In this document: positions 2,859-16,403 of the stretch, one piece after another | Layout of the letters: each line of letters begins with the position of its first letter | How positions within the stretch are numbered: position 1 is the first letter of the stretch | Source of the DNA: Promethearchaeota archaeon | GTDB lineage: Archaea > Asgardarchaeota > Lokiarchaeia > Sigyniarchaeales > SOKP01 | NCBI GenBank assembly: GCA_019894975.1 | Contig: JAGXNO010000060.1 | Coordinates: 1 to 17,079 of the forward strand | Reading direction: 5' to 3' | Length of the DNA: 17,079 nucleotides | Program-made: the position numbers and the translations under genes | The notes under the pieces: generated by a model | What the model saw: only the letters and a program-made list of their open reading frames with translations | Databases searched by the model: none | Told to the model about the DNA's origin: nothing

Positions 2859-3506
2859 TTGTCTCAGGAAGTAATTTTTAAAAATATGGTTGATTCCATT
2901 GTTAATTTAGACGAAGAAAAAGCTTTAGAATTGGCAAACAAAGCAATTAAAGATGGTATGAACTTAATGGATGTTGTTGAAAGAGGATATGCCGCAGGTA
3001 TTCGGGAAGTTGGAGAGTTATGGGAAGAAGGTGAATTTTTTCTCCCAGAATTAATGAGAGGAGCAGAAATTATGCAAAAATGTTTGGATTTAATTATTCC
3101 TCACCTGAAGAAGGGATCAGAAGACATTTCGAAGGGAAAAGTAGTAATTGCGACAATTGAAGGGGATATCCATTCCATAGGGAAAACTATTGTTGGGACT
3201 ATGTTAAGAGCCTATGGTTTTGAAGTTCATGACTTAGGGGCTGATGTCCCTGCTGAAAAAATTGTTGATGTAGCTGTAGAAATAAATGCAGATATAATTG
3301 GAGTTTCTGCACTTCTAACAACCACAATGTTTGGTCAGAAAAAAATAATTGAAATCCTAAAAGAACGTAATTTACTGGATAGATTCAAAGTTATTCTCGG
3401 CGGTGCTCCAGTGACAGGTTCCTGGGTAACTGAATGTAATGCTGATGGGTTTGCGGAGAATGCTATTGATGCTGTAAAATTAGTTAAATCTTTACTAAAT
3501 AAATAG
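2859..3506 (+). CDS. Corrinoid (cobalamin-binding) methyl-carrier protein, MttC/MtbC/MetH-cap+B12 type
   Basis: Cap domain FFLPEL; B12-binding motifs DIHSIG (DxHxxG), SALLTTT and GGAP. TTG start preceded by a GGAG RBS. Confidence 0.93.
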   Translation: MSQEVIFKNMVDSIVNLDEEKALELANKAIKDGMNLMDVVERGYAAGIREVGELWEEGEFFLPELMRGAEIMQKCLDLIIPHLKKGSEDISKGKVVIATIEGDIHSIGKTIVGTMLRAYGFEVHDLGADVPAEKIVDVAVEINADIIGVSALLTTTMFGQKKIIEILKERNLLDRFKVILGGAPVTGSWVTECNADGFAENAIDAVKLVKSLLNK

Positions 3507-3534
3507 ATATCAAAATTATTGAGGTAAAGAAAGA

Positions 3535-4419
3535 TTGTTGTTTCATAATTGGCTAAAGGATGACTCGAAGATCATTCTTTTCGATGGGGCCTTTGGAACC
3601 GAACTGATTAAAAGGGGATTAAAGCCAGGAAAAGTCCCAGATCTATTAAATATTGAAAATCCAGAAATCATAACTGAAATTCATAAATCTTATTATGATG
3701 CTGGTTCAGATATGTGTCAATCAAATACGTTCGGCTCAACCCCAATAAACTTAAAACGTCATAATATTGAGGGAAAGATCACTAATATCATTGAAAAAGC
3801 ATTAGATAATATTAAGAAAGCCTATCGTCCAGGACATTTAATTGTTGGTGACATTGGCCCAACTGGAGAATTCAGACCCCCAGTAGGGAATGCTTCAAGT
3901 GAAGAATGGTACTCAAGTTTTAAGACTCAAACTGAACTATTAGAAGGTGGAGTTGATTTATTTCATATCGAAACAATTTCAGATTTAGAAGAAATGTTAG
4001 CTGCTATTCATGCTGTAAAAGACGTTTCAAATAAACCACTAATAGCTTCAATTACTTATAAAAAAACAAAACGAGGTTATTTTACTATTATGGGAGACTC
4101 GTTAGAAAAATGTATAAAAACCTTAGAAAACGAAAAAGTTGATGTTGTTGGGGCAAATTGCACTCTTGGGTCATATGACATGCTTGATTTAGTAAAGCAA
4201 ACAACTGAGCTTACAGATCTACCAATTTCTATAAAACCTAATGCAGGAAAGCCAAGAATTGAAGGGACTAAAACTCTTTATGATCAACCAATTTCAGAAT
4301 TTGTAAGCGATATTCAGAAAATGATAGATTTAGGAGTAAAAATAGTTGGTGGTTGTTGTGGCACAACACCCGAGACTATAAAGGAAATCCGTAAAATTAT
4401 TGATTCAAACAAATATTAA
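3535..4419 (+). CDS. Stand-alone homocysteine S-methyltransferase domain protein (MetH N-terminal domain type)
   Basis: DGAFGTEL, H.SY..AG.D...SNTFG, GDIGPTG, IETISD, GANC, PNAG.P and GGCCGTTP, i.e. three Zn-ligand cysteines. TTG start with a GAGGT RBS. Confidence 0.93.
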   Translation: MLFHNWLKDDSKIILFDGAFGTELIKRGLKPGKVPDLLNIENPEIITEIHKSYYDAGSDMCQSNTFGSTPINLKRHNIEGKITNIIEKALDNIKKAYRPGHLIVGDIGPTGEFRPPVGNASSEEWYSSFKTQTELLEGGVDLFHIETISDLEEMLAAIHAVKDVSNKPLIASITYKKTKRGYFTIMGDSLEKCIKTLENEKVDVVGANCTLGSYDMLDLVKQTTELTDLPISIKPNAGKPRIEGTKTLYDQPISEFVSDIQKMIDLGVKIVGGCCGTTPETIKEIRKIIDSNKY

Positions 4420-4438
4420 ATGAAATGAAAGAAAAATT

Positions 4439-5872
4439 ATGACAATACTTAGACCAAAAATAAATGTCTTAGATGAGAACCATAAAAATGAGATTTTCCA
4501 AGAAGCAAAATTAATATTGGAAACTCAGGGAATTTTCATTGAAAATCAAGAAGCAATTGAAATGTTTGAAAAAAAAGGATTGAACCATGATGGTGCAAAG
4601 TACTTCATTCCTTCAGACTTAGTTGAGAAATCGTTAGATTCAGTTCCTCGTCAAATCACTCTTTTTGATAGAGAGGGAGAGGAACATTTAACCCTAAAAG
4701 AGGATCAAGTTCATTTTGATCCGGGTTCGGCAGCTATTTTTATATTAGACGAAAACACTGGAGAGATAAGAGAGGGAAAATCTAAAGATTTTATTAGATT
4801 TTCTAAGATTGTAGAACAGTTAGATTATATTGATGCTCAAAGCACTGCTCTTATTTATCAAGATGTTCCAAATGATGCACAAGATTGGCATCGTTTATAT
4901 TTGGCATTATCAAATTGTTTTAAACCAATAGTAACAGGAACATTTCGAAAAGAGAGTTTCTCGATAATGAGGGAGATCTTATTAGCATGTAGAACTTCTG
5001 AGGACGATTTAGCTCGAAAACCATTAGCAATATTTGATGCTTGCCCTAGTCCTCCACTAAAATGGTCTGATCTGACCACACAATCATTAATTGATGCTGC
5101 CAAAAGCATGATACCTTCTGAATTTGTGTCAATGCCTTTATCAGGAGCGAGTGCTCCGATTACACTAATTGGTTCAATTACACAGCATTGCGCTGAGTGT
5201 TTAGCAGGAGTTGTAATAGTTCAACTAGCTAACAAAGGTGCTCCATTAATTTGGGGTGGTTCTCCGGCTGTTTTTGATATGAAACATGGAACAACCCCGA
5301 TGGGTGCTATTGAAACAATGATGATTAACCTTGGAGATGTTGAAATGGGCAAATTTCTGCATCTACCTACTCATGCTTATATGAGTCTAACCGATGCTAA
5401 GATCCCTGATGGACAGGCTGGCTTCGAAGCAGGAATGGGAGCATTACTTGGAGGTCTTGGGGGAGTTAATATGATTTCTGGTCCTGGAATGATGGATTTT
5501 GAATCTACTCAAAGTGTTGAAAAACTTATAATTGACAATGAAATAATAGGAATGGTTAAAAGATTACTTCGTGGTATTGATGATTATGGTACACCCTATG
5601 CTTCAGAAATTTTAAAAGACTATGAAGATAAAGAAGAATTATTATCACACCCCTCAACTCTCAAATACTTTAGAAAGGAATTATTTCTACCAAGCCCAAT
5701 TATAGATAGAATGACAAGGGATTCATGGAAACAAGATGGTTCGAAATCAGTAAGAAAACGAGCAAAAGAAAGAGCTTTAAGACTTGCTGAAAAGCCCTCA
5801 ATTAAACCTATAGATGAAAGTTTAGTAAAAGAATTAGATCGTATCACTGAGCAATCAATGAAAGGTACATAG
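4439..5872 (+). CDS. Trimethylamine methyltransferase (MttB) superfamily protein, non-pyrrolysine
   Basis: SPPLKW, MPLSGASAPITLIG, Q....GAP, DMK.G....GA.E and DAKIPDGQAGFE. Uninterrupted ORF with no in-frame TAG. Confidence 0.92.
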   Translation: MTILRPKINVLDENHKNEIFQEAKLILETQGIFIENQEAIEMFEKKGLNHDGAKYFIPSDLVEKSLDSVPRQITLFDREGEEHLTLKEDQVHFDPGSAAIFILDENTGEIREGKSKDFIRFSKIVEQLDYIDAQSTALIYQDVPNDAQDWHRLYLALSNCFKPIVTGTFRKESFSIMREILLACRTSEDDLARKPLAIFDACPSPPLKWSDLTTQSLIDAAKSMIPSEFVSMPLSGASAPITLIGSITQHCAECLAGVVIVQLANKGAPLIWGGSPAVFDMKHGTTPMGAIETMMINLGDVEMGKFLHLPTHAYMSLTDAKIPDGQAGFEAGMGALLGGLGGVNMISGPGMMDFESTQSVEKLIIDNEIIGMVKRLLRGIDDYGTPYASEILKDYEDKEELLSHPSTLKYFRKELFLPSPIIDRMTRDSWKQDGSKSVRKRAKERALRLAEKPSIKPIDESLVKELDRITEQSMKGT

Positions 5873-6771: not shown

Positions 6772-7035
6772 TTGATTGAAAAAAATGAAAAAGGCTTCTC
6801 ACTGTTTTTAAATAAAGGTAGATGTGGTGGCTGTAGAGCTTGTATCGCAGTTTGTCCAACAGGCATCTTAGAGCTTAGTGATGAATTGAATTATAGAATT
6901 GCCTATATACCAAAAATCAAAGAAGGTAAAGCAAAATATTGTACTGGATGTCGTCGATGCGAATATGCATGTCCTGATTGGTGTATTTACGTTTTGGACG
7001 AAGAAGAATCACCTAATGAGAAAGCAAAAACTTAA
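6772..7035 (+). CDS. 2x[4Fe-4S] ferredoxin, delta subunit of 2-oxoacid:ferredoxin oxidoreductase (KorD-like)
   Basis: Two CxxCxxCxxxCP motifs (CGGCRACIAVCP, CTGCRRCEYACP); first gene of the OFOR operon. Confidence 0.92.
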   Translation: MIEKNEKGFSLFLNKGRCGGCRACIAVCPTGILELSDELNYRIAYIPKIKEGKAKYCTGCRRCEYACPDWCIYVLDEEESPNEKAKT

Positions 7036-7048
7036 TGAGGTTAAATAA

Positions 7049-8221
7049 ATGGAAAAAATAAATGATAAGAGATATTTACCTGAAGGAAAGCATGTTATGA
7101 TGGGTAACATTGCAATGTCTGAGGGTGCGCTCGCCGCAGGTCTTGAATTCTTTGGAGGATACCCAATTACTCCAAGCACAGAAGTGATCGAGCATTTAGC
7201 CCGAAGGATGCCTGAAGTCGGAGGGGTATGCATGCAGATGGAAGATGAATTAGCATCCATAAATTCTGTAATGGGCGCTTCTCTTGTAGGTGCTAAAGCA
7301 ATGACCGCAACATCGGGACCGGGATTTTCATTGATGGTGGAAACAATTAGCATGGCTGCTTGCTTAGAAATCCCTTTTGTGTTTTGTGATGTTCAAAGAA
7401 ACGGTCCGGGTACTGGATTTGTGACCCAACCTCACCACAATGATTTAGGTTTGATGCGATTTGCAGGTAATGGAGAATTTGGGGTTATCGCACTAGCACC
7501 AATGAATTGTCAAGAACTCTTCGATTTAACCATTACAGCATTTAATTTTGCTGAGATTTACCGTTGTCCCGTTTTTCTTGTGTCGGATGCATATTTGGGA
7601 CATCTTCATGAACCATTGTTTATACCATCAAAGGAGGAGATTATTGAGAAAGTAATTCCTCGTGAATTACCCAATGATTTTACACATAAATTCACATATT
7701 ATGATAATAAAACGAACTCATATATAATCCCAAAACCACCAATTATGGGAACAGATTATGTACCATTGATGTTTCTTCATCAAGCACATAATTCAAGTGG
7801 TTTATCTTCACAAAGAGAGGCACTTCCGTTTACAAAGATGCTGACTGATAAACTTAAGACCAATATAGATAAAATTTCTTTGACTGAAGAATATAAATTG
7901 GACGATGCCGAAATAATTATTATTTCTTATGGGTTGCCAGTTAGAACTAGTTATCGCGCAGTTGATATCGCACGCAAGGAGGGAATTAAAGTTGGGATTT
8001 TTAGACTAATTACTTTGTGGCCATTTCCGGATGAGAAAGTAAAGAAAATAGTAAAAAACGCAAAAGCGGTAATTGTACCTGAACTGAATTATACTGGTGT
8101 AATGGCAGAACAAGTTGAACGGGTGACAAAATTAGAAATTCCTATAATAAAAATTCCTAAGATATGCGATTTTCATCACCCAGATGATATTCTAAAAGTT
8201 ATAAGGGAGGTGGCAAAGTAA
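7049..8221 (+). CDS. 2-oxoacid:ferredoxin oxidoreductase alpha subunit (KorA-like)
   Basis: GYPITPSTE, QMEDE, TATSGPGFSLM, DVQR.GP.TG, LWPFP, VPELN. GAGGT RBS. Confidence 0.94.
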   Translation: MEKINDKRYLPEGKHVMMGNIAMSEGALAAGLEFFGGYPITPSTEVIEHLARRMPEVGGVCMQMEDELASINSVMGASLVGAKAMTATSGPGFSLMVETISMAACLEIPFVFCDVQRNGPGTGFVTQPHHNDLGLMRFAGNGEFGVIALAPMNCQELFDLTITAFNFAEIYRCPVFLVSDAYLGHLHEPLFIPSKEEIIEKVIPRELPNDFTHKFTYYDNKTNSYIIPKPPIMGTDYVPLMFLHQAHNSSGLSSQREALPFTKMLTDKLKTNIDKISLTEEYKLDDAEIIIISYGLPVRTSYRAVDIARKEGIKVGIFRLITLWPFPDEKVKKIVKNAKAVIVPELNYTGVMAEQVERVTKLEIPIIKIPKICDFHHPDDILKVIREVAK

Positions 8222-9126
8222 TGTCGTCATATCCCAGTGAACAACCAGAACATCCATACTTCTCTATTTCAATGCCAGGAAAGTTTTTCAAAAGATACTT
8301 CTCTCTTTTCTGTGCAGGATGTGGTTATGGAATAATAGGTCATCTTTTCAACCGTGTATTTGAAGATGAAAAACTAGATCCTAAATTGTATCCAGTAGTT
8401 ATTGGAATCGGGTGTTATAGTCAGATTTTGTTAACTTTACATCATGCTACACAGAGAATATTGACATTACATGGTCGAGCACCAGCATTAGCTACAGGAA
8501 TGAAAATGGCAAACCCAAAAATGAAACCCATTATTTTTACAGGAGATGGTGATAGTCTAGGAATAGGGGGAAATCATTTTATGCATATTTGCCGAAGAAA
8601 TCTTGATTGTGTTATCCTTATTTTTAATAATAGTATTTATGCTATGACTGGTGGACAAGGCGCACCCACAACTTTATTTGGTGCTATGAGTTCAACTACA
8701 CCGTATAAAATGTTCGAAAATAGGGCCGATGGTGTTAAACTTGCACTCACTGCAGGAGCTACTTATGTTGCACGAACAACAGTTGCTCACCCCCGAACTT
8801 TAATGAAATATTTTAGAAAGGGATTAAAACATAAAGGTACTGCTGTAATAGAAATAATTACTCCTTGTGTTACATACTTTGGAAGAAAAAATCTTGATAG
8901 TTTAGGATCAGAAACTTTAGGTATAAAAGGACAGAAAATGGATAATACTGGAATTATGATTGACTGGATTAAAAGAAATAGTTTACGAATTAATCAAGCG
9001 AAATTCATGACAGAAGAAGAACTGATGAATAAATATATCATTGGAGAATTTAGATTTGATCCTAATAGACCAGAATATTCTGAAGAATATGAGAAAATAA
9101 AGCAAATTGCAATGGGGGAGAAGTAA
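8221..9126 (+). CDS. 2-oxoacid:ferredoxin oxidoreductase beta subunit (TPP-binding, KorB-like)
   Basis: CAGCG, GIGC, HGRA, GDGD...NN..YAMTGGQ and TPC. Overlaps the alpha stop as TAATG. Confidence 0.94.
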   Translation: MSSYPSEQPEHPYFSISMPGKFFKRYFSLFCAGCGYGIIGHLFNRVFEDEKLDPKLYPVVIGIGCYSQILLTLHHATQRILTLHGRAPALATGMKMANPKMKPIIFTGDGDSLGIGGNHFMHICRRNLDCVILIFNNSIYAMTGGQGAPTTLFGAMSSTTPYKMFENRADGVKLALTAGATYVARTTVAHPRTLMKYFRKGLKHKGTAVIEIITPCVTYFGRKNLDSLGSETLGIKGQKMDNTGIMIDWIKRNSLRINQAKFMTEEELMNKYIIGEFRFDPNRPEYSEEYEKIKQIAMGEK

Positions 9127-9129
9127 AAA

Positions 9130-9726
9130 TTGGCACGTTATGAAATACGTATTGCTGGATTTGGAGGACAGGGTGTAATTACCCTATCAAAAATGATAAT
9201 AACTGCTGCTTCGCTTTATGAAAACTTAGCAGCTACTCAAACTGAAGCTTATAGTGCTTCTGCTCGTGGAGGTGCTTGTTGGGCAGAAGTTGTTGTGGAA
9301 TTAGATAAAAGTATAGAAGTTATTGATTATCCTCAAGCCTTAAAGCCATACGATTTTTTAATTGTACTTTCTGGAGAGTCAGCAGCCCGTGTTACTCCCG
9401 ATCAGTTTAAGACTGACGAAAACACAGGATATCTTATTTGGGATCCATCAACGATCAAAGATTTTAAAACAGCAAAACAAATTCGAAAATCATTAAGTAT
9501 TCCTGTTCAAAAAATAGCGGTTGAAAATTTTGGGAATATTGTGTTTGGGAACTCGATACTTTTTGGTGCCTTTACATTCCTCTCAGGAATAATATCAGAA
9601 GAATCTGCGATTGAAACCTTAAAGAAATTTGTACCAAATTCTACATTAGAAAAAAATTTAGAAGCATTTGAATTAGGAAAAAAAGAAGCGCAAGAATTTA
9701 TGAAAATGTTAAAGGAGGATAATTAG
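9130..9726 (+). CDS. 2-oxoacid:ferredoxin oxidoreductase gamma subunit (KorC/G-like)
   Basis: IRIAGFGGQG, Y...ARGG, N...GA, N..AF..G. TTG start 3 nt after the beta stop. Confidence 0.93.
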   Translation: MARYEIRIAGFGGQGVITLSKMIITAASLYENLAATQTEAYSASARGGACWAEVVVELDKSIEVIDYPQALKPYDFLIVLSGESAARVTPDQFKTDENTGYLIWDPSTIKDFKTAKQIRKSLSIPVQKIAVENFGNIVFGNSILFGAFTFLSGIISEESAIETLKKFVPNSTLEKNLEAFELGKKEAQEFMKMLKEDN

Positions 9727-9730
9727 AGAT

Positions 9731-11548
9731 ATGTATATTAACAAAATAAAAAAGGGATGGCAAGAATTAGATTCTGAGATAATTAGAACAGGCAAATGTG
9801 TATATTGTGGTGCATGTGGGGCGTTTTGTGCAAATATAAAGTTTGATACCTCTAAAGAAATTCCAATCGAGGATGGTTCGTGCCAAGATAGTAATACTTG
9901 TAGAGATGGATTCGGATTATGTTACAATTTATGCCCAAAAACGGGAAATGATCAAATACCTTTATCTCTGTTAGATAAATGGGTATTTGGAAAGGAGCAG
10001 GATAGAATATTAGGTCATTACATAAATATTTTAACTGTGAGATTAACGGATACTGCAAAACAAAGACTTCCTATTGAAGCGGGTCCTATTACTGCCTTAT
10101 TATATACTGCTATGGAGGTAGGAAAAATCGATTGTGCAATACTTACAGATAAGGATGAGAATTTTATACCCCATCCCATAATGGCAACAAATCAAGAGCA
10201 GATTTTTAGCAGTGTGGGATATAAACCAAGTCAAAGTCCAACCTTGTCATTAATAGGAGATGCGATAAATAAAGAATATACTAATACCGCTGTTGTTGGT
10301 ACCCCCTGCCAAATTCAAGCATTAAGAAAATTACAAAATCATCCCATATTTGATTATGAAGCATATGATTTGATTTCACTAGCAATAGGGACTTTTTGCT
10401 TTGGAACGTATTATAACCAACTGCTAGCTCAATGTCTTGAGGATTTTAATATAGATCACAAGGAAATTAAGAAATTTGACTCAAATAAAAGTGATTTTAA
10501 ACTAAAAATTTTTACAACCTCAGGTACTAAGGAGATTCCACTAAATTATATTTATGATAAATCAATTCGCAATGCCTGTTTTTCATGCTCAGATTATACT
10601 GCTGAATTTGCGGATATATCTGTTGGTAATGTTGGAAGTGAGAAAGACTGGAAGACTCTGATTGTTAGAACTGAAAGAGGGAAGGAAATTATTGATATTT
10701 GCATTGAGAAAGGTTTTCTTGAAATTAAGAATCTTCCGAATGAAGACGAGGAATTGGTATTAGATATTACAAGAAAGAAAACAGATCTTGCTAAAATAGA
10801 ATCTATAGAAGAACTATCACCTGAAATTAAAAGCTTTAAGATCCGAAATGAAAGAATTGCTAAAGCATATAAACCCGGCATGTTTGTGGTTTTATGGCTT
10901 CCCGATACAGATTTCTTACCTATGTCTATTTCCCAAATAGAGGGTAATTTAATTGAAATAACCGTACAGAAAATCGGTGAGGGTACGGGAAAATTATTTG
11001 AACTGAATGAAGGTGATAGACTTGGTATTAAAGGTCCTTTTGGTAACTCATGGAATTACGAAGATGCGTCTAACATTTTAATTGTTGGAGGAGGAATGGG
11101 GATTGCCGCTCTAACGTCATTAATTGAGCCATTAAAAAAAAATAAAAAGAACCTCTACTTAACTATTGGAGCTAAAGACAAAGCCTCATTAATATATGCT
11201 GATCGACTAACAAATATTATCCCAAATACAATGTGTTCCACCGATGATGGTTCTTTTGGTAAGAAGTGTTATGTAACCGACACTATTGAGGATATTATGA
11301 CTAAGAACAACATCGATATGGTTATTACTTGTGGTCCTGAAATAATGATGAAAAAAGTCTTAAATCTTGCTGAATCAAAGAAAATCCAAATCCAAGCTTC
11401 CCTTGAAAGAAAAATGAAATGTGGTGTTGGAGTATGTGGTTCCTGTTGTATTGGTGAAAATAATGATGTTTCTGTTTGTAATGAGGGACCAATCTTTACT
11501 TCTGAACAACTGAAGAAAATTCCTCAGTTTGGAAGCTATGAAAAATGA
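9731..11548 (+). CDS. Fusion of an Fe-S/FrhB-FdhB (F420-binding beta subunit family) domain and a PyrK-like FAD/NAD(P)/[2Fe-2S] electron-transfer domain
   Basis: N-terminal CVYCGAC...C and CYNLCP; FrhB motifs VGTPCQ, IGTFC, CFSC.D, ADISVG, IVRT..G. From ~aa 353, PyrK motifs PGMFV, PMS, GPFGN, GGGMGIA, TDDGS.G, CGPEIMM, SLE..M.CGVG.CG.C and C.EGP. AAGGAGG RBS inside the gamma gene. Confidence 0.9.
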   Translation: MYINKIKKGWQELDSEIIRTGKCVYCGACGAFCANIKFDTSKEIPIEDGSCQDSNTCRDGFGLCYNLCPKTGNDQIPLSLLDKWVFGKEQDRILGHYINILTVRLTDTAKQRLPIEAGPITALLYTAMEVGKIDCAILTDKDENFIPHPIMATNQEQIFSSVGYKPSQSPTLSLIGDAINKEYTNTAVVGTPCQIQALRKLQNHPIFDYEAYDLISLAIGTFCFGTYYNQLLAQCLEDFNIDHKEIKKFDSNKSDFKLKIFTTSGTKEIPLNYIYDKSIRNACFSCSDYTAEFADISVGNVGSEKDWKTLIVRTERGKEIIDICIEKGFLEIKNLPNEDEELVLDITRKKTDLAKIESIEELSPEIKSFKIRNERIAKAYKPGMFVVLWLPDTDFLPMSISQIEGNLIEITVQKIGEGTGKLFELNEGDRLGIKGPFGNSWNYEDASNILIVGGGMGIAALTSLIEPLKKNKKNLYLTIGAKDKASLIYADRLTNIIPNTMCSTDDGSFGKKCYVTDTIEDIMTKNNIDMVITCGPEIMMKKVLNLAESKKIQIQASLERKMKCGVGVCGSCCIGENNDVSVCNEGPIFTSEQLKKIPQFGSYEK

Positions 11549-11587: not shown

Positions 11588-13189
11588 TTATTCAATTTTG
11601 CTTAAATGCTTAATTCCCAAAAATAATAGAGGAATTGCAATTACTCCTGAAATTAATATCATAGGACTTAAATAAAATAGTTGTGCAAGATGTGGTGACG
11701 TTGGTGGACTAAAAAAGAGTAAAAGAGCCGTAAAAATTATCTGAAATGGAATCATTTGTAATACCATTAGTATTAAATTATTTGTAGTCATAGCCCGTCC
11801 TTTTTCTTCAAATGAAGGGCTGAAACATTGGATACCAACTGCTTGAAACATAACTAATTGATTATAGATTAAATAAAAAGTAAAGAAAAAGATAATTGTA
11901 AAGACATCAAATTTAAAGAAGATAGCAAAGAAAATAGTTAAACCTAAGGTCATAATTACATTCATCAAAAACATTGCTAAAATATAAGAGTAAACCAAAG
12001 CTCTTACATTTCTAGGACTCCTTTTATAAACCCAAATTAAATCTTTAGATCCTACAAAAATATAACTTCCAAAAAGTAAACCATACATCATGCCCCCCAT
12101 GATAATTACCATTACAATAATTAGTGATTGGACTATAGATACTTCTGTACCCATTGTAAAAGAAAAAATTACTCCCAATACTCCAACAATCCCACACACA
12201 TAAACGATTTTCATTATTGTTTCTCTTTTTCTTAAAAATTCCTTTAATTGTGTAATGATTAATCCTTCCCACTTATGTCCGGTAATTTTTCGGGTCATTA
12301 AGTAGAATTTATTCTCAGACTCAATTACCATAGTAATTTTTTCAATTCCTCCCTCAACGGTAAAGAAACTCTCTGCCTTTTTATATGCAATATATAGAAA
12401 TAAAACTGGAATAATTATAGCAATCAAACTACTATACCAAATATTTAAAAAATAATTGCTTATCAAACTAGGTTCTATAAAATATAAAATTATATTCGAA
12501 AACCATATTGAAGGATAAAAACTTACCCAATTTCTCAGTTCGGGGTTATTAATAAGATAATTAAACAAAAATTGGAGAGAATAAATTACGGCTATTATCG
12601 CTATTGAAAGAAGAAACATTAGGACCTTACCTATATCTCGAGCACGTTCACTTTTCGCAATTTTATGCTCAAGCCAAGATGAAATAATCGATCCTAGTAA
12701 AGCTGCGAATAGAACCAGACCAAAAATGCATGAATAAATGATAACATAATGCATTACAATAAGATTAATAATAGGATTTAACATTCCAATTATAAGGGGC
12801 GTTGCAATTAAAATAATTGCTGTATAGATTGGGAATTTACCTATGAATTCCCCTAAAAAAATATCCCCTGAAGTAGCTGGAGATGCTAATAAAATTTCTT
12901 TAAAGCCTATTTCAGTCTTCCTATAAACAGTGTTTAATGGGTATATCAAGATGAAAAGAAATAAAGTCATCATACCAAATTCAATTAAAAGTGACACCAC
13001 CAGTAAGATTTCAGGACCCACTATATCTATTATAGTGGGCATAAAAATGTCAAAAATAGCGGGACATAGAAAAAATGCCCATATCAACAACACACTATAT
13101 AAAATGATTAAAAAAAGTACTCTGTTTTTGCGAAAAAGGCTAGTTCTTAACCGTATCTCATTTTTAGCTATTGATTTCCAGAGAGCCAT
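11588..13189 (-). CDS. Multi-pass ABC exporter-type permease
   Basis: Many hydrophobic segments in two similar halves (KNEIRL / LKEFLR), directly downstream of an ABC ATPase. ATG at 13189 (MALWKS) is preferred over the track's TTG at 13270, which would overlap the ATPase by 65 nt. Confidence 0.8.
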   Translation of the reverse strand: MALWKSIAKNEIRLRTSLFRKNRVLFLIILYSVLLIWAFFLCPAIFDIFMPTIIDIVGPEILLVVSLLIEFGMMTLFLFILIYPLNTVYRKTEIGFKEILLASPATSGDIFLGEFIGKFPIYTAIILIATPLIIGMLNPIINLIVMHYVIIYSCIFGLVLFAALLGSIISSWLEHKIAKSERARDIGKVLMFLLSIAIIAVIYSLQFLFNYLINNPELRNWVSFYPSIWFSNIILYFIEPSLISNYFLNIWYSSLIAIIIPVLFLYIAYKKAESFFTVEGGIEKITMVIESENKFYLMTRKITGHKWEGLIITQLKEFLRKRETIMKIVYVCGIVGVLGVIFSFTMGTEVSIVQSLIIVMVIIMGGMMYGLLFGSYIFVGSKDLIWVYKRSPRNVRALVYSYILAMFLMNVIMTLGLTIFFAIFFKFDVFTIIFFFTFYLIYNQLVMFQAVGIQCFSPSFEEKGRAMTTNNLILMVLQMIPFQIIFTALLLFFSPPTSPHLAQLFYLSPMILISGVIAIPLLFLGIKHLSKIE

Positions 13190-13205
13190 TCTATGTTTAT
13201 CATCT

Positions 13206-14048
13206 TTATTTCTTTTTTTTAATTTTCTTATCTTTTTCAAGTTTTTGAGGAACTGCTTCCCTCCATACAAGTAAATCCTCTATACGCTTGGCACCCATTA
13301 TTTTAAGATAGGCTTCTTCTAGATCTTTAGTTTCCGCTGACTCAATTATTTCTTTTGGTGTTCCCTCTACTTTTATTTTCCCATTATCAATTATTCCGAT
13401 TAAATCGCATAGTTCTTCTGCTGCATCAAGAAGATGAGTACATATAAAAACGGTTTTATCCGCTTTCTTAGTGAGATCAGATATTAAATCTTTTACCATT
13501 CTGGCAGCTGCAGGATCTAGATTCGATGTCGGTTCATCTAGAAAAAGAATTTTTGGATCCTGAATTAAAGCGGCACATAAACAAACCTTTTGCTTCATTC
13601 CTCTACTATATCCTTCTAAGAGATCATTTTCACGTCCCCCTAAATCAAATATACCAATTAATTCCTCAATACGATTAAAAATAATATCTTTTGGAAGATA
13701 ATATAATTCCCCTACAAACTCTAAAAATTCTTTTGCTGTTAATTTTTGATATAAGCCCGGTGTTTCAGGTAGGAAGCCAGAATTAATTTTAACTTGTTGA
13801 CTCTGATTAATAATATCATATCCTACCACTTTCGCATTTCCTGAAGTTGGTGAAATAATAGAATTAAGCATTCGTACGGTAGTAGTTTTTCCGGCTCCGT
13901 TGGGACCAAGTAATCCAAATGTTGATCCATAAGGAATTTTTAGGTTTAAATTATCAACAGCTATAACGTTTCCGAAATTCTTAGTAAGGTTGTTTGTTAT
14001 TATTGCATATTTTTCAGAAATATTAATACACACCCAAATTTGAAACAA
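13206..14048 (-). CDS. ABC transporter ATP-binding protein (multidrug/ABC-2 type)
   Basis: Walker A GPNGAGKT, signature YSRGMKQK, Walker B LFLDEPT, H-loop CTH. Start uncertain: TTG at 14048, GTG at 14033 or ATT at 14021. Confidence 0.93.
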   Translation of the reverse strand: MFQIWVCINISEKYAIITNNLTKNFGNVIAVDNLNLKIPYGSTFGLLGPNGAGKTTTVRMLNSIISPTSGNAKVVGYDIINQSQQVKINSGFLPETPGLYQKLTAKEFLEFVGELYYLPKDIIFNRIEELIGIFDLGGRENDLLEGYSRGMKQKVCLCAALIQDPKILFLDEPTSNLDPAAARMVKDLISDLTKKADKTVFICTHLLDAAEELCDLIGIIDNGKIKVEGTPKEIIESAETKDLEEAYLKIMGAKRIEDLLVWREAVPQKLEKDKKIKKKK

Positions 14049-14215: not shown

Positions 14216-15353
14216 TTAGATATTTTTTAATCTTGGATCTAGAGCATCTCTTAGTCCATCCCCTACTAGCATAAATCCTAATACTGTTAAAAATATCATA
14301 ACTCCAGGCCATAACCCAGCCCAAGGTGCTTCGTATGGATTTTCTCGAGCAATATTTATATCATTACCCCATTCAATTGTTACAGATTGATTTACACCTA
14401 AAAAGGAAAGCCCTGCTAATCCCAAGATTACCGTTCCCAAATTAAAAGTGACAGATATGATAATTGGTTGTATTACATTTGGAAGTATATGTTTAAACAT
14501 GATTCTCCAATTTCCCGCTCCAGACGTTACTGCTGCGTTTATATAAGGGAGATTTCTCGTTAATAATACATTTCCTCTGATCAAACGAGCATAAAATGGG
14601 ATGCCTAAAAATCCATAAATCAACAGGATCATTTCTAAAAATGGTCCATAAATTGCGATAAATACTAAAGCAAGGATTAGTGCTGGGAAAGCAAGAAAGA
14701 TATCACAGATCCTCATTATTAATAAATCTACCCATCCCCCATAATAAGCAGCCAGTACACCAAGTAAAACACCCCCAATAACACTAAGAGTGAGTGAAGG
14801 TAAAGCAATTGTTAAAGAAGTTCTTGCACCCCAGATTAATCTTGACAAAACATCCCCTCCCATGGCAGTTTGACTTGTTATGTTAAATAAGCAAGATCTT
14901 ACAGAAGTCATAGGAGAAGAAGATTTTAAGCAAGTTTTAAAAGATGAGAAGCTATGGTATGAACCTGAAGATGAATTATATAGATGGAATCTAATAATTT
15001 ATAAATGGATGTTCAGGAAAAGGAGGATTCCAAGAACCAACTTGAGGTATCATTGCTTGTCGCATTGATTGGGTAGACAACCATGGAGCAAAAACCGCGA
15101 GGGAGACGATTAGAAAAATAATGCAAAAACCCAAAACAGTTAGTGGATTTTTTAATCTCTTAATAAAATGCCTCTTAGTTGCAGCTTTTTCAAATTCTAG
15201 TTCTCTAAAAGTTAATTCTTCAAGCCTAGATCCTGGGAGAAGTAAAAATTTGATATTCTTAAAAATCCAAGTAAGCAGTTATTTTGGGATTTCTCCTGTT
15301 TCTTCAGAATCTTTTAGCTCTTCTTTTTCTACTATTACATAAGATTTTTCCAT
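14216..15353 (-). pseudogene. dppC: DppC/OppC-type peptide ABC permease, disrupted by an in-frame TAA and a frameshifting insertion
   Basis: From ATG 15353: MEKSYV...GEIPK*LLTWIFK...LKNPLTVLGFCIIFLIVSLAVFAPWL...PPFPEHPF, then ~127-128 bp of foreign DNA, then in another frame QTAMGGDVLSRLIWGARTSL...HILPN...GDGLRDALDPRLKNI. Confidence 0.88.
14875..15002 (+). other. Inserted fragment resembling part of a small GTPase gene (G4 region), antisense to dppC
   Basis: Plus frame reads LVMLNKQDLTEVIGEEDFKQVLKDEKLWYEPEDELYRWNLIIY(K): a hydrophobic strand followed by NKQD (14886-14897). Confidence 0.65.
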
Positions 15354-15371
15354 AACTAATTCACATTAAGA

Positions 15372-16403
15372 TTAGGAATATCTTATTCTCGGATCTAAAA
15401 TCGCATAAAGTACATCAGTCATTAAATTTGCGATAATGAAAATCACTGTAATGAGAAATACCAGCGCAGCTAAAACCCAATAATCGTATAATAGAATGGC
15501 ATCAATAAATAATTTTCCTATTCCGTTTAAGCCAAAAGTTGTTTCAGTAAGAACCGCACCTCCCAATAAGCCAGCAATATTTAAACCTATTATTGTTACC
15601 GTTGGAATTAGAGCATTTCTCAAAGCGTGGGAGTGTATCACTTCTTTTTCTTTACATCCCTTAGCTCTTGCTGTTCTCACAAAATCTTGCTCTAACACTT
15701 CTAGCATGCTTGATCTCGTTTGTCTTGTAATAGATGCAAGGGTAATAAATGATAGACAAAAAACGGGTAACGCTAAATGCCATAAATAATCCCCAATCAA
15801 GTACCAGTGCCCTGACAAAAATGAGTCAATTAAGATAAATCCTGTTACATAAGGAGGATCAACATATGCTGCTGTTAAATGCCCCGTTGGTTCGAAAAGT
15901 TTTAATTGATACCCTAGAGTGAATTGAAGCAACATACCTAAAAAGAATACTGGTAAAGCAACTCCTACTAAAGCAAATCCTCTTACAATTGTATCAGGAG
16001 AATCATTTCTATGAGTGGCAGAGACAATACCAGCTTTAATACCCAGATAGGCGGAAATCGCCATTGAATAGATTGTAAGATCAATAGTTAATGGTATTCT
16101 TTCCATGACTAAATCCCAAACAGGTTGATTTCGAACTATGGATACAGAAACACCCCAATGTCCTGTAAATAATTCACCTAAATATCGTAAATACTGGATA
16201 ATTATTGGATCACATAATCCTAGTTGACATTTCATTTGAGTGTACATTTCAGCTGAGGGGTTACGAACTCCCGAAGCAGCTAATCTTGCGGCGATAGGGT
16301 CTCCAGGCATCATTCTAGAAAGAATGAATGTTAAAGTTAATACCCCGAATAACACAGGGATCATTACAACTAATCTCCTGATTATGTATTTAATTAAACT
16401 CAT
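15372..16403 (-). CDS. dppB: DppB/OppB-type peptide ABC permease
   Basis: YIIRRL..IPVL.GV, PGDP, QY..Y, HL.LP, RSSMLEVL.QDFVRTARAKG, H.LRNA, E..F...GIG, D..YA.LDPRIRY. Confidence 0.95.
   Translation of the reverse strand: MSLIKYIIRRLVVMIPVLFGVLTLTFILSRMMPGDPIAARLAASGVRNPSAEMYTQMKCQLGLCDPIIIQYLRYLGELFTGHWGVSVSIVRNQPVWDLVMERIPLTIDLTIYSMAISAYLGIKAGIVSATHRNDSPDTIVRGFALVGVALPVFFLGMLLQFTLGYQLKLFEPTGHLTAAYVDPPYVTGFILIDSFLSGHWYLIGDYLWHLALPVFCLSFITLASITRQTRSSMLEVLEQDFVRTARAKGCKEKEVIHSHALRNALIPTVTIIGLNIAGLLGGAVLTETTFGLNGIGKLFIDAILLYDYWVLAALVFLITVIFIIANLMTDVLYAILDPRIRYS

Follow-up and report, generated by a model that had tools for sequence, protein, structure and literature searches.

A candidate NAD(P)-directed output subunit, built from ferredoxin, FrhB and PyrK modules, in the 2-oxoacid:ferredoxin oxidoreductase operon of an Asgard archaeal order

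The DNA analysed here, referred to as the window, is a stretch of 17,079 nucleotides (contig JAGXNO010000060.1, about 32% G+C) from a Promethearchaeota archaeon of the order Sigyniarchaeales. An uninterrupted open reading frame (ORF) on its forward strand, 9731-11548, encodes a protein of 605 residues, hereafter the fusion, in which three modules share one chain: a ferredoxin domain with two [4Fe-4S] clusters, an FrhB-fold domain with one [4Fe-4S] cluster and a complete PyrK module. The gene is the fifth and last of an operon (6772-11548) for an OorDABC-type 2-oxoacid:ferredoxin oxidoreductase (OFOR), downstream of the genes for the delta, alpha, beta and gamma subunits (Table 1). The genes are tightly packed, with 13 nt between delta and alpha, -1 nt (an overlap) between alpha and beta, 3 nt between beta and gamma and 4 nt between gamma and the fusion. 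The fusion gene has a GGAGG 12 nt before its ATG and an oligo-T run after its stop codon, and the next gene is convergent. All four subunits of a four-subunit OFOR were found by Pfam within this one operon, and their order, D-A-B-C, equals that of oorDABC. The solved chains nearest to alpha are 1yd7_A, 8ys5_A and 6n2n_A, and the one nearest to beta is 8ys5_C, the beta subunit of 2-oxoglutarate:ferredoxin oxidoreductase. Because of this subunit order and these nearest solved relatives, the OFOR core is assigned to the 2-oxoglutarate/2-ketoacid type. Alpha, beta and gamma score far under the cut-offs of the Pad models for phenylglyoxylate dehydrogenase, and the genome encodes at least four further OFOR alpha paralogues, with 28-42% identity.

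Within the fusion, Pfam places FrhB_FdhB_N at residues 118-175, FrhB_FdhB_C at 185-336, NAD_binding_1 at 452-543 and DHODB_Fe-S_bind at 559-594, and PF04422 and PF04432 score 40.5 and 133.5 bits, each above its cut-off. The border between the FrhB and PyrK parts lies at about residue 350 (nt ~10780). These profile matches agree with an earlier note on this DNA, made from the letters alone, which had described a single 605-residue ORF with an Fe-S and FrhB part up to ~10790 and a full PyrK module thereafter. The C-terminal part reaches the level of the PyrK equivalog (NF000796, 256-259 bits against a cut-off of 224), and the FrhB and FpoF equivalog levels are missed (TIGR03289, 163 against 331.5 bits; FpoF, 109 against 475 bits). 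All 16 cysteine ligands of the Fe-S clusters, which form four sets, are invariant in an alignment of 12 close homologues. The ligands of the [2Fe-2S] cluster are all cysteines (C564/569/572/583), i.e. the first position, an aspartate in NfnA, aligns as a cysteine as in PyrK, and the site is PyrK-like rather than NfnA-like, as the earlier note had recognised. The motifs GGGxGxA, TDDGS, CGPExMM and C-x4-C-x2-C...C of this half are common to archaeal PyrKs.

The three modules are conserved to different degrees. The ferredoxin domain is the best conserved (76-92% in close relatives, 49-56% in distant ones), the FrhB core the least (58-77% and 32-36%), with the PyrK module in between (69-80% and 43-47%). 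An AlphaFold2 model based on a 61-sequence alignment has a mean pLDDT of 91.0 and a pTM of 0.89, which suggests that the three modules form a rigid body. In Foldseek comparisons residues 1-350 superimpose on 8riu_B with a TM-score of 0.83 (2.5 A; E 3e-58 for the match to the N-terminal ~350 residues) and on 8rja_E with 0.79, and the C-terminal half matches PyrK (5ksw_B, 0.84), NfnA (5jca_S, 0.81) and SHI gamma (9nf0_C, 0.79). By alignment with the ferredoxin domain of 8riu_B, residues 1-90 are presumed to act as a docking and bridge domain.

Table 1 Annotated features of the window (positions in nucleotides of the whole stretch)
Feature	Position	Strand	Basis
Corrinoid protein and methyltransferase gene cluster	2859..5872		B12-binding; PF02574; MttB superfamily
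OFOR delta, 87-aa ferredoxin, two [4Fe-4S] motifs, OorD-like	6772..7035	+	Fer4 families (Pfam); OorD (NCBIfam) 62 bits, cut-off 93
OFOR alpha (2-oxoglutarate/2-ketoacid type)	7049..8221	+	POR_N and PFOR_II; NF006412 398 bits, cut-off 411
OFOR beta, thiamine pyrophosphate-binding	8221..9126	+	TPP_enzyme_C
OFOR gamma	9130..9726	+	Pfam POR
Fusion residues 1-90, ferredoxin domain, 2x[4Fe-4S]	9731..10000	+	C23/26/29/33 and C51/57/64/68; aligns with the ferredoxin domain (1-83) of 8riu_B
Fusion residues 91-350, FrhB-fold domain, one [4Fe-4S], remodelled flavin/F420 pocket	10001..10780	+	PF04422 and PF04432; C193/223/283/286
Fusion residues 351-605 plus stop, PyrK-type FAD/NAD(P) module, all-Cys [2Fe-2S]	10781..11548	+	NF000796
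560-aa ORF	11588..13270	-	
ABC-transporter ATPase	13206..14048		
DppC-like ORF and DppB-like gene	14216..16403	-	Family profiles

The fusion is a recurrent protein. Over 120 clusters of proteins with about 605 residues share 67-95% identity with it, and the junction is present in 27 genomic loci from named metagenome-assembled genomes, 26 of them full length, so that the possibility raised in the earlier note, a junction without support from homologues, is set aside by the >120 clusters and ~30 loci that carry it. Among 1.84 billion cluster representatives, by comparison, both halves are joined at full length in only two (67% and 43% identity), plus fragments; the remaining matches cover one half only. 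At E <= 1e-60, 87 of 400 sampled genomes of the phylum gave a match, and 86 of these 87 belong to families of the window's own order. By family, the fusion occurs in 80 of 134 genomes of f1, to which the genome of the window itself is added, in 4/4 of f4 and in 1/1 of f2; in the 87th genome (G007, family f11) only the PyrK half is matched, and no fusion was found in the ~260 genomes of other families in this sample. The five-gene unit is confined to the order of the window. Within the genus, 26 of 53 genomes carry the fusion and 27 do not, several of the latter being 97-100% complete; the gene is therefore accessory. Several public labels at these loci (NCBI names Thorarchaeota, Hodarchaeota, Hermodarchaeota and Bathyarchaeota for L015-L041, P0012, P0014, P0035 and P0125, and Brocadiia bacterium for L042) conflict with the GTDB placement in the genus or order of the window, and claims on distribution built on those NCBI names would be wrong.

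Linkage to the OFOR genes is close to complete. When the 27 loci (L015-L041) were compared by tblastn, 21 had the full delta-alpha-beta-gamma set immediately before the fusion, among them two with 42% identity, of which one comes from Sigynarchaeum. The same order recurs in three further distant genomes at 36-52% identity, and the linkage of the five genes holds down to 36-39% identity. Gamma directly precedes the fusion wherever upstream DNA exists; three of the 27 loci end at a contig edge, and the two with residual upstream DNA keep gamma. The outer flanks of the operon, on the other hand, differ from locus to locus. Alpha orthologues (>=75% identity) are present in 26 of the 53 genomes of the genus, and these are the fusion carriers, bar two exceptions accounted for by a fusion cut at a contig end and by a 100-N scaffold gap; since alpha and fusion occur in the same genomes, the five genes move as one unit. 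Exceptions to the synteny were traced to a contig end (G282), a frameshift (G130), the 100-N gap (G187) and genes split over two contigs (G227 and G196), and two loci, L021 and L031, in which beta or alpha is missing upstream, remain as exceptions. At L017 an ORF of 1036 residues with a LAGLIDADG homing-endonuclease domain (L017:13-3123, equal to G196:C25) separates beta and gamma in a genome of the same genus, with delta-alpha-beta on another contig (G196:C139, L114). The assemblies of G227 and G187 likewise break between or inside beta and gamma, and insertions into the operon may favour the beta-gamma region.

Next to this conserved linkage, the FrhB domain diverges at its supposed F420 site. 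In the FrhB structure three hot spots hold FAD and F420, i.e. the start of a conserved helix (Q-x-G-G-V-V-T, with the FAD pyrophosphate at the N-terminus of the helix GIVTGLL), a Lys-Tyr loop (G-S-K-Y) and a small Ser-Val pair beside F420 (PMC3591093). Where the canonical sequences are QxGGVVT, GSKY and GSVG, the fusion reads IEAGPIT, GYKP and GNVG. Compared with 20 diverse stand-alone FrhB relatives, in which 62 columns are at least 80% conserved, it retains 51 of these columns, including all cysteine ligands, and loses Q115, G117 and Y166, each present in 20/20 of the stand-alone proteins; S300 is replaced by N, D, E, R or V. Stand-alone relatives show Q-[DN]-G-G-x-V-T at the helix N-terminus, G-[ST]-K-Y in the Lys-Tyr loop and V-G-S-[VI]-G in the F420 loop, whereas fusions of family f1 have [IS]-[EN]-A-G-P-[IL]-T, G-Y-K-P-S-Q-S-P and G-N-[VIF]-G, and those of f4 have G-G-A-E-x-G, no Lys-Tyr loop and G-[VR]-x-D. 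The hot spots are altered in 16/16 fusions, differently in f1 and f4; they are kept in canonical form by 20/20 stand-alone relatives, by 8riu_B and 8rja_E and by an OFOR-linked FrhB on a metagenome contig (L120, see below). After these alignments the idea that the FrhB half is an intact F420 reductase was dropped. As judged from the alignments, conservation across the family extends to the Fe-S wire, to the docking domain and to the PyrK module but stops short of the F420/FAD pocket, and we consider coupling of the fusion to F420 doubtful, i.e. possible but not expected from its motifs.

The genome encodes at least seven other FrhB paralogues, none joined to PyrK. Four of these keep the hot spots, one with alanine for the loop serine, and three (L004:291-1505, L007:1363-2526 and L008:1411-2553) form a second non-canonical group, in which T-D-G-G replaces Q-D-G-G, G-x-x-L or Y-Y replaces G-S-K-Y, and F-G-G-L-G-S replaces V-G-S-V-G. 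By their motifs, several proteins with the FrhB fold in this archaeon may thus not be F420 enzymes. A gene for a RagA/Gtr1-type small GTPase, a eukaryote-signature protein (L006:2982-3893, on the genome's own contig C109), lies directly downstream of a 506-residue FrhB paralogue.

The PyrK half has a traceable origin. Among its nearest outside relatives, 37 of 52 have pyrD within 300 nt, and by this measure the half derives from pyrD-linked PyrKs. Public databases name the protein 'dihydroorotate dehydrogenase electron transfer subunit', and the concern of the earlier note that an automated 'pyrK' label would hide the fusion is borne out. To take that name literally, as a plain PyrK and electron-transfer subunit of dihydroorotate dehydrogenase B, one can point to the equivalog-level score and to genuine PyrKs as the nearest relatives of the C-terminal half. 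However, another contig of the same genome (C94) carries a genuine, higher-scoring stand-alone PyrK (274 bits) whose gene overlaps that of PyrD (356 bits), which answers the earlier note's question about a pyrD elsewhere and leaves the fusion without a role as PyrD partner. No pyrD was found in the window or near the fusion in any examined locus, and half of the genomes of the same genus, some 100% complete, have no fusion, a poor fit for an essential pyrimidine gene. The plain-PyrK reading is refuted for practical purposes, and we give it next to no weight. As the earlier note had also stated, hydrogenase and formate dehydrogenase genes, like pyrD, are not adjacent; the profile matches of the window's genes show none.

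On contig C175, a third PyrK-type gene of the genome, next to an NfnB/GltD-type gene (616 bits), encodes a canonical NfnA (344 bits), so that the three PyrK-type modules of the genome are paired with PyrD, NfnB and FrhB, respectively. PyrK of dihydroorotate dehydrogenase B (1EP3, 5KSW) and NfnA (4YLF, 5JCA) share with the fusion the same FAD/NAD-binding fold of the ferredoxin-NADP+ reductase (FNR) type and the C-terminal [2Fe-2S] cluster (TM-scores 0.81-0.84), and PyrK in addition shares the all-Cys site and the equivalog-level score. In contrast to both, the PyrK half of the fusion is joined to FrhB, which stands where PyrD or NfnB would be the partner; its [2Fe-2S] loop is longer (CCIGENNDVSVC), and DFLP rather than DE-x-P precedes the PMSIS motif. 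It is not an NfnAB either, as its first ligand is Cys rather than Asp and no GltD-like domain is present in the fusion or the operon. A supposed loss of the arginine from the FNR-type flavin motif 'R-x-Y-S' was rejected as a distinguishing trait, since the arginine is likewise absent from genuine archaeal PyrKs, including that of the same genome, which read DE-x-P.

Among characterised systems, the N-terminal half is closest to the adaptors of Ca. Ethanoperedens thermophilum, the zeta subunit of carbon monoxide dehydrogenase (CODH; 8RIU_B) and FwdI (8RJA_E). In these, too, an FrhB fold with one [4Fe-4S] cluster comes after a 2x[4Fe-4S] ferredoxin domain, and they are likewise encoded inside the operon of a host enzyme that normally uses ferredoxin. 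In the zeta subunit of the F420-reducing CODH, the ferredoxin domain (residues 1-83) serves as anchor and electron bridge and is followed by the F420-reductase domain (84-349), and in the F420-reducing CODH and Fwd complexes ferredoxin reduction is only about eightfold slower than that of F420 (PMC11493965). The differences are the host (OFOR instead of CODH or Fwd), the C-terminal PyrK module, the altered sequences where the adaptors keep QxGGVVT, GSKY and GSVG, and the lineage, Asgard instead of Methanosarcinales-related. By analogy, the likeness suggests that the N-terminal half of the fusion belongs with adaptors of this kind, for which the diversion of electrons from ferredoxin-type enzymes has been demonstrated biochemically.

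FrhB-family genes directly downstream of OFOR genes, with a proposed role in drawing 2-oxoacid electrons off from ferredoxin, have precedents as well. Chadwick et al. proposed that FrhB paralogues in pyruvate:ferredoxin oxidoreductase (PFOR) and CODH clusters of ANME-1 form F420-reducing, oxidative-only complexes, carboxylation (-500 mV) being beyond the reach of F420H2 (-340 mV) (PMC9012536). We found a compact alpha-beta-FrhB operon without PyrK on the metagenome contig L120. In contrast to the fusion, the FrhB of L120 (371 residues) and of the FrhB6-PFOR clusters of ANME-1 is stand-alone, lacks PyrK and has canonical FAD/F420 motifs, and the OFOR of the L120 type is distant, with 26-27% identity to the alpha and beta subunits of the window. 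The nearest stand-alone FrhB relatives (the Archaeoglobus-type P0127 group) show no OFOR link within their short contigs; only the more distant L120 protein is linked. The L120 contig also encodes a 599-residue protein with a tubulin/FtsZ GTPase domain and a SIR2-like domain (L120:1181-2980).

Regarding output to NAD(P), OFOR-type enzymes with this property are known, i.e. NADH-dependent phenylglyoxylate dehydrogenase (PadEFGHI) and pyruvate:NADP+ oxidoreductase (PNO) of Euglena and Cryptosporidium (cited in PMC13768988). Both would share the proposed function of the fusion complex, in which a 2-oxoacid core with thiamine pyrophosphate (TPP) and Fe-S clusters is combined with a flavoprotein that reduces NAD(P)+ directly. 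Their output modules are not homologous to the fusion; that of PNO is a cytochrome-P450-reductase-type domain. Kinship with the flavin subunit of phenylglyoxylate dehydrogenase was considered and rejected, as no Pad model matches the fusion. Fsr, a sulfite reductase dependent on F420 (7NP8, 7NPA; PMC10229431), also holds, in one chain, a ferredoxin and FrhB-fold unit followed by a second redox module, which is a siroheme sulfite reductase rather than PyrK; Fsr is a proven F420H2 oxidase.

Based on these comparisons combined with the operon linkage, we propose that the fusion is the output subunit of the OFOR, wiring its electrons to NAD(P)+ and bypassing free ferredoxin, a reading to which we assign a probability of roughly 0.55. 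The 605-residue protein would represent a fifth, epsilon-like subunit of the four-subunit 2-oxoglutarate-type enzyme, with the N-terminal ferredoxin domain docking onto the OFOR Fe-S chain. Electrons would pass from TPP via the beta cluster to the two delta clusters of the core, then through the three [4Fe-4S] clusters of the fusion to its [2Fe-2S] cluster, and from there by way of the PyrK FAD to NAD(P)+. The FrhB-derived domain would mainly serve as Fe-S wire and scaffold, its flavin/F420 pocket being remodelled, and the substrate is most likely 2-oxoglutarate or another amino-acid-derived 2-oxoacid. The OFOR is taken as the electron partner because the gene is tied to the OFOR operon in every assessable locus. 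We infer OFOR binding, the direction of electron flow, the choice between NAD and NADP and the substrate; gene structure, operon linkage, co-inheritance, cofactor ligands, fold and the divergence of the F420/FAD motifs are observed. Several points weigh against this proposal. Co-transcription is no proof of a stable complex, the case resting on genes and a predicted structure, and sequence cannot tell NAD from NADP. The best solved matches of the N-terminal half are all F420 enzymes, and a link to F420 would suit the physiology, with Mtd and CofDEG present and canonical Fno and FrhA not found. Furthermore, the altered FrhB motifs are invariant within f1 (GYKPSQSP, AGPxT), and the pocket may therefore still work with changed specificity, so that flavin and even F420 may, on the sequence, still be bound.

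The F420 background of the genome bears directly on this last point. CofD, two copies of CofE, CofG with a CofH-like neighbour, and Mtd score above cut-offs, so that F420 biosynthesis genes, for which the earlier note had asked, are present; none of Mer, FrhA and Fno was found above curated cut-offs in the genome. One of the CofE matches (G000:C98:137224-137997, L103) lies, as in many relatives within the family, in an open frame of ~472 residues, where other Asgard families have ~250-270; this agrees with a report of a bifunctional F420 glutamyl ligase, FbiB-like, in Lokiarchaeota (PMC8498797). Co-occurrence of the fusion with F420 biosynthesis carries no information, as CofE is present in 383 of the 400 genomes of the phylum. 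Fermentation, for its part, has been noted to give no F420H2 (PMC10667645).

Should the FrhB domain still bind FAD and F420, the enzyme would be an F420-reducing OFOR or one with dual output to F420 and NAD(P)+: 2-oxoacid oxidation would supply F420H2 to Mtd and other F420 enzymes of a Wood-Ljungdahl electron sink, and PyrK would provide a further outlet. This is an unlikely but serious alternative, in agreement with the F420-reducing adaptors 8riu_B and 8rja_E as nearest solved relatives, with the PFOR-FrhB and CODH-FrhB clusters proposed to reduce F420 in ANME-1 (PMC9012536), with the proven CODH and Fwd cases (PMC11493965), with the Cof and Mtd genes in a genome where FrhA and Fno stay below cut-offs, with the remark on fermentation cited above, and with the invariance of the altered motifs within f1. 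However, all three hot spots are unlike those of every stand-alone relative and of both proven adaptors, the sub-families differ from each other, the FrhB core is the least-conserved module, and the presence of the F420 genes is uninformative in a phylum in which nearly all genomes have CofE. A different use of an FrhB flavin would be electron bifurcation or confurcation of the Nfn type, the flavin standing between a low-potential branch, i.e. the [4Fe-4S] chain to the OFOR, and a high-potential branch from the [2Fe-2S] cluster via the PyrK FAD to NAD. One hydride carrier would then drive reductive carboxylation, or NADH together with 2-oxoacid electrons would reduce a third carrier. A [2Fe-2S] cluster of the PyrK type normally feeds a partner flavin (in PyrD the FMN, in NfnB the bifurcating FAD), and this habit, the fold matches to PyrK and NfnA, the pairing of the genome's three PyrK-type modules with PyrD, NfnB and FrhB, and a pTM suggestive of fixed geometry speak for such an arrangement. 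The potentials given above point the same way, as F420H2 alone cannot drive carboxylation (PMC9012536) and the reverse reaction would need a second module. Yet the would-be bifurcating flavin site is precisely what varies across the fusion family, the [2Fe-2S] cluster is all-Cys instead of the Asp/Cys3 type of NfnA, and a canonical NfnAB is already present in the genome; we consider this mechanism improbable. It is just as much of a long shot that the remodelled pocket, invariant within f1, still has a flavin wired both to the low-potential [4Fe-4S] chain of the OFOR and, via the [2Fe-2S] cluster and FAD of PyrK, to NAD(P), and that the five-subunit enzyme thereby founds a new class of bifurcating or confurcating 2-oxoacid oxidoreductases with Nfn-like topology, FrhB in place of NfnB and the TPP enzyme in place of ferredoxin, whose third partner might be F420 or another hydride carrier.

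The earlier note had suggested a possible ferredoxin/F420/NAD(P) oxidoreductase or an F420:NAD(P) transhydrogenase; as a free-standing soluble enzyme, this would only be co-expressed with the OFOR and would draw on free ferredoxin. Its own ferredoxin domain could take electrons from soluble ferredoxin, Methanosarcina FpoF, which alone acts as a ferredoxin:F420 oxidoreductase, offers a precedent, and no canonical Fno was found in the genome. Against this stand a fusion never found apart from delta-alpha-beta-gamma in ~30 loci, with joint gain and loss, a spacing of only 4 nt to gamma, a non-canonical F420 site and a ferredoxin domain that is the best-conserved module, as a fixed interface would be, and we place little credence in an independent enzyme. 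The more specific suggestion of an Fno-independent F420:NAD(P) transhydrogenase is not supported, given the OFOR operon linkage at every assessable locus and the changed F420 hot spots. That of a three-way electron hub survives only as a minority reading. Taken together, we favour output of the OFOR to NAD(P)+.

The window also contains other genes. A tight cluster upstream of the operon encodes a corrinoid protein (B12-binding), a homocysteine S-methyltransferase-type protein (PF02574) and a 477-residue methyltransferase of the MttB superfamily, the last without an in-frame stop, and this cluster lies beside the OFOR operon in close relatives only. Downstream lies a 560-residue ORF, 64-80% identical in relatives and matched by no Pfam or NCBIfam model. 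It overlaps the start of a gene for an ABC-transporter ATPase, whose uncharacterised permease partner it may encode. Further on, a DppC-like permease ORF (231 residues) matches family profiles only from position ~50-90 and is separated from a DppB-like gene by a gap of 460 nt, which fits a split dppC.

Re-targeting of a ferredoxin-type enzyme by an adaptor subunit is already known, as a hypothesis since 2022 and with proof in 2024, and so are NAD(P)-linked OFOR-type enzymes. What is new is that FrhB and PyrK are fused, that the fusion is strictly bound to an OFOR of the 2-oxoglutarate type, that it is confined to a single Asgard order and that its FrhB pocket is remodelled. The searchable literature yielded none of these features; there, subscription-only papers lying outside the scope, no paper contained both 'FrhB' and 'PyrK', and F420, FrhB and Asgard are absent from a 2026 review of OFORs. 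Hundreds of database entries label the fusion PyrK, and metabolic reconstructions may consequently miscount both pyrimidine synthesis and redox modules.

In conclusion, we here describe a protein that may change how electrons are thought to leave 2-oxoacid oxidation in these organisms. Loki-type Asgard archaea are the closest prokaryotic relatives of eukaryotes, and in the syntrophic life on fermented amino acids that has been proposed for them, low-potential electrons come mainly from the oxidation of 2-oxoacids. If the proposed mechanism is true, a built-in NAD(P) outlet would send OFOR electrons to NAD(P)H instead of ferredoxin, H2 or formate, which would affect metabolic models of Loki-type archaea and of eukaryogenesis. 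In function, the enzyme would also be a counterpart, among prokaryotes, of the pyruvate:NADP+ oxidoreductase of eukaryotes and of the NAD-linked 2-oxoacid dehydrogenase complexes, and it would widen the recently proven principle that adaptor subunits re-target ferredoxin-type enzymes.

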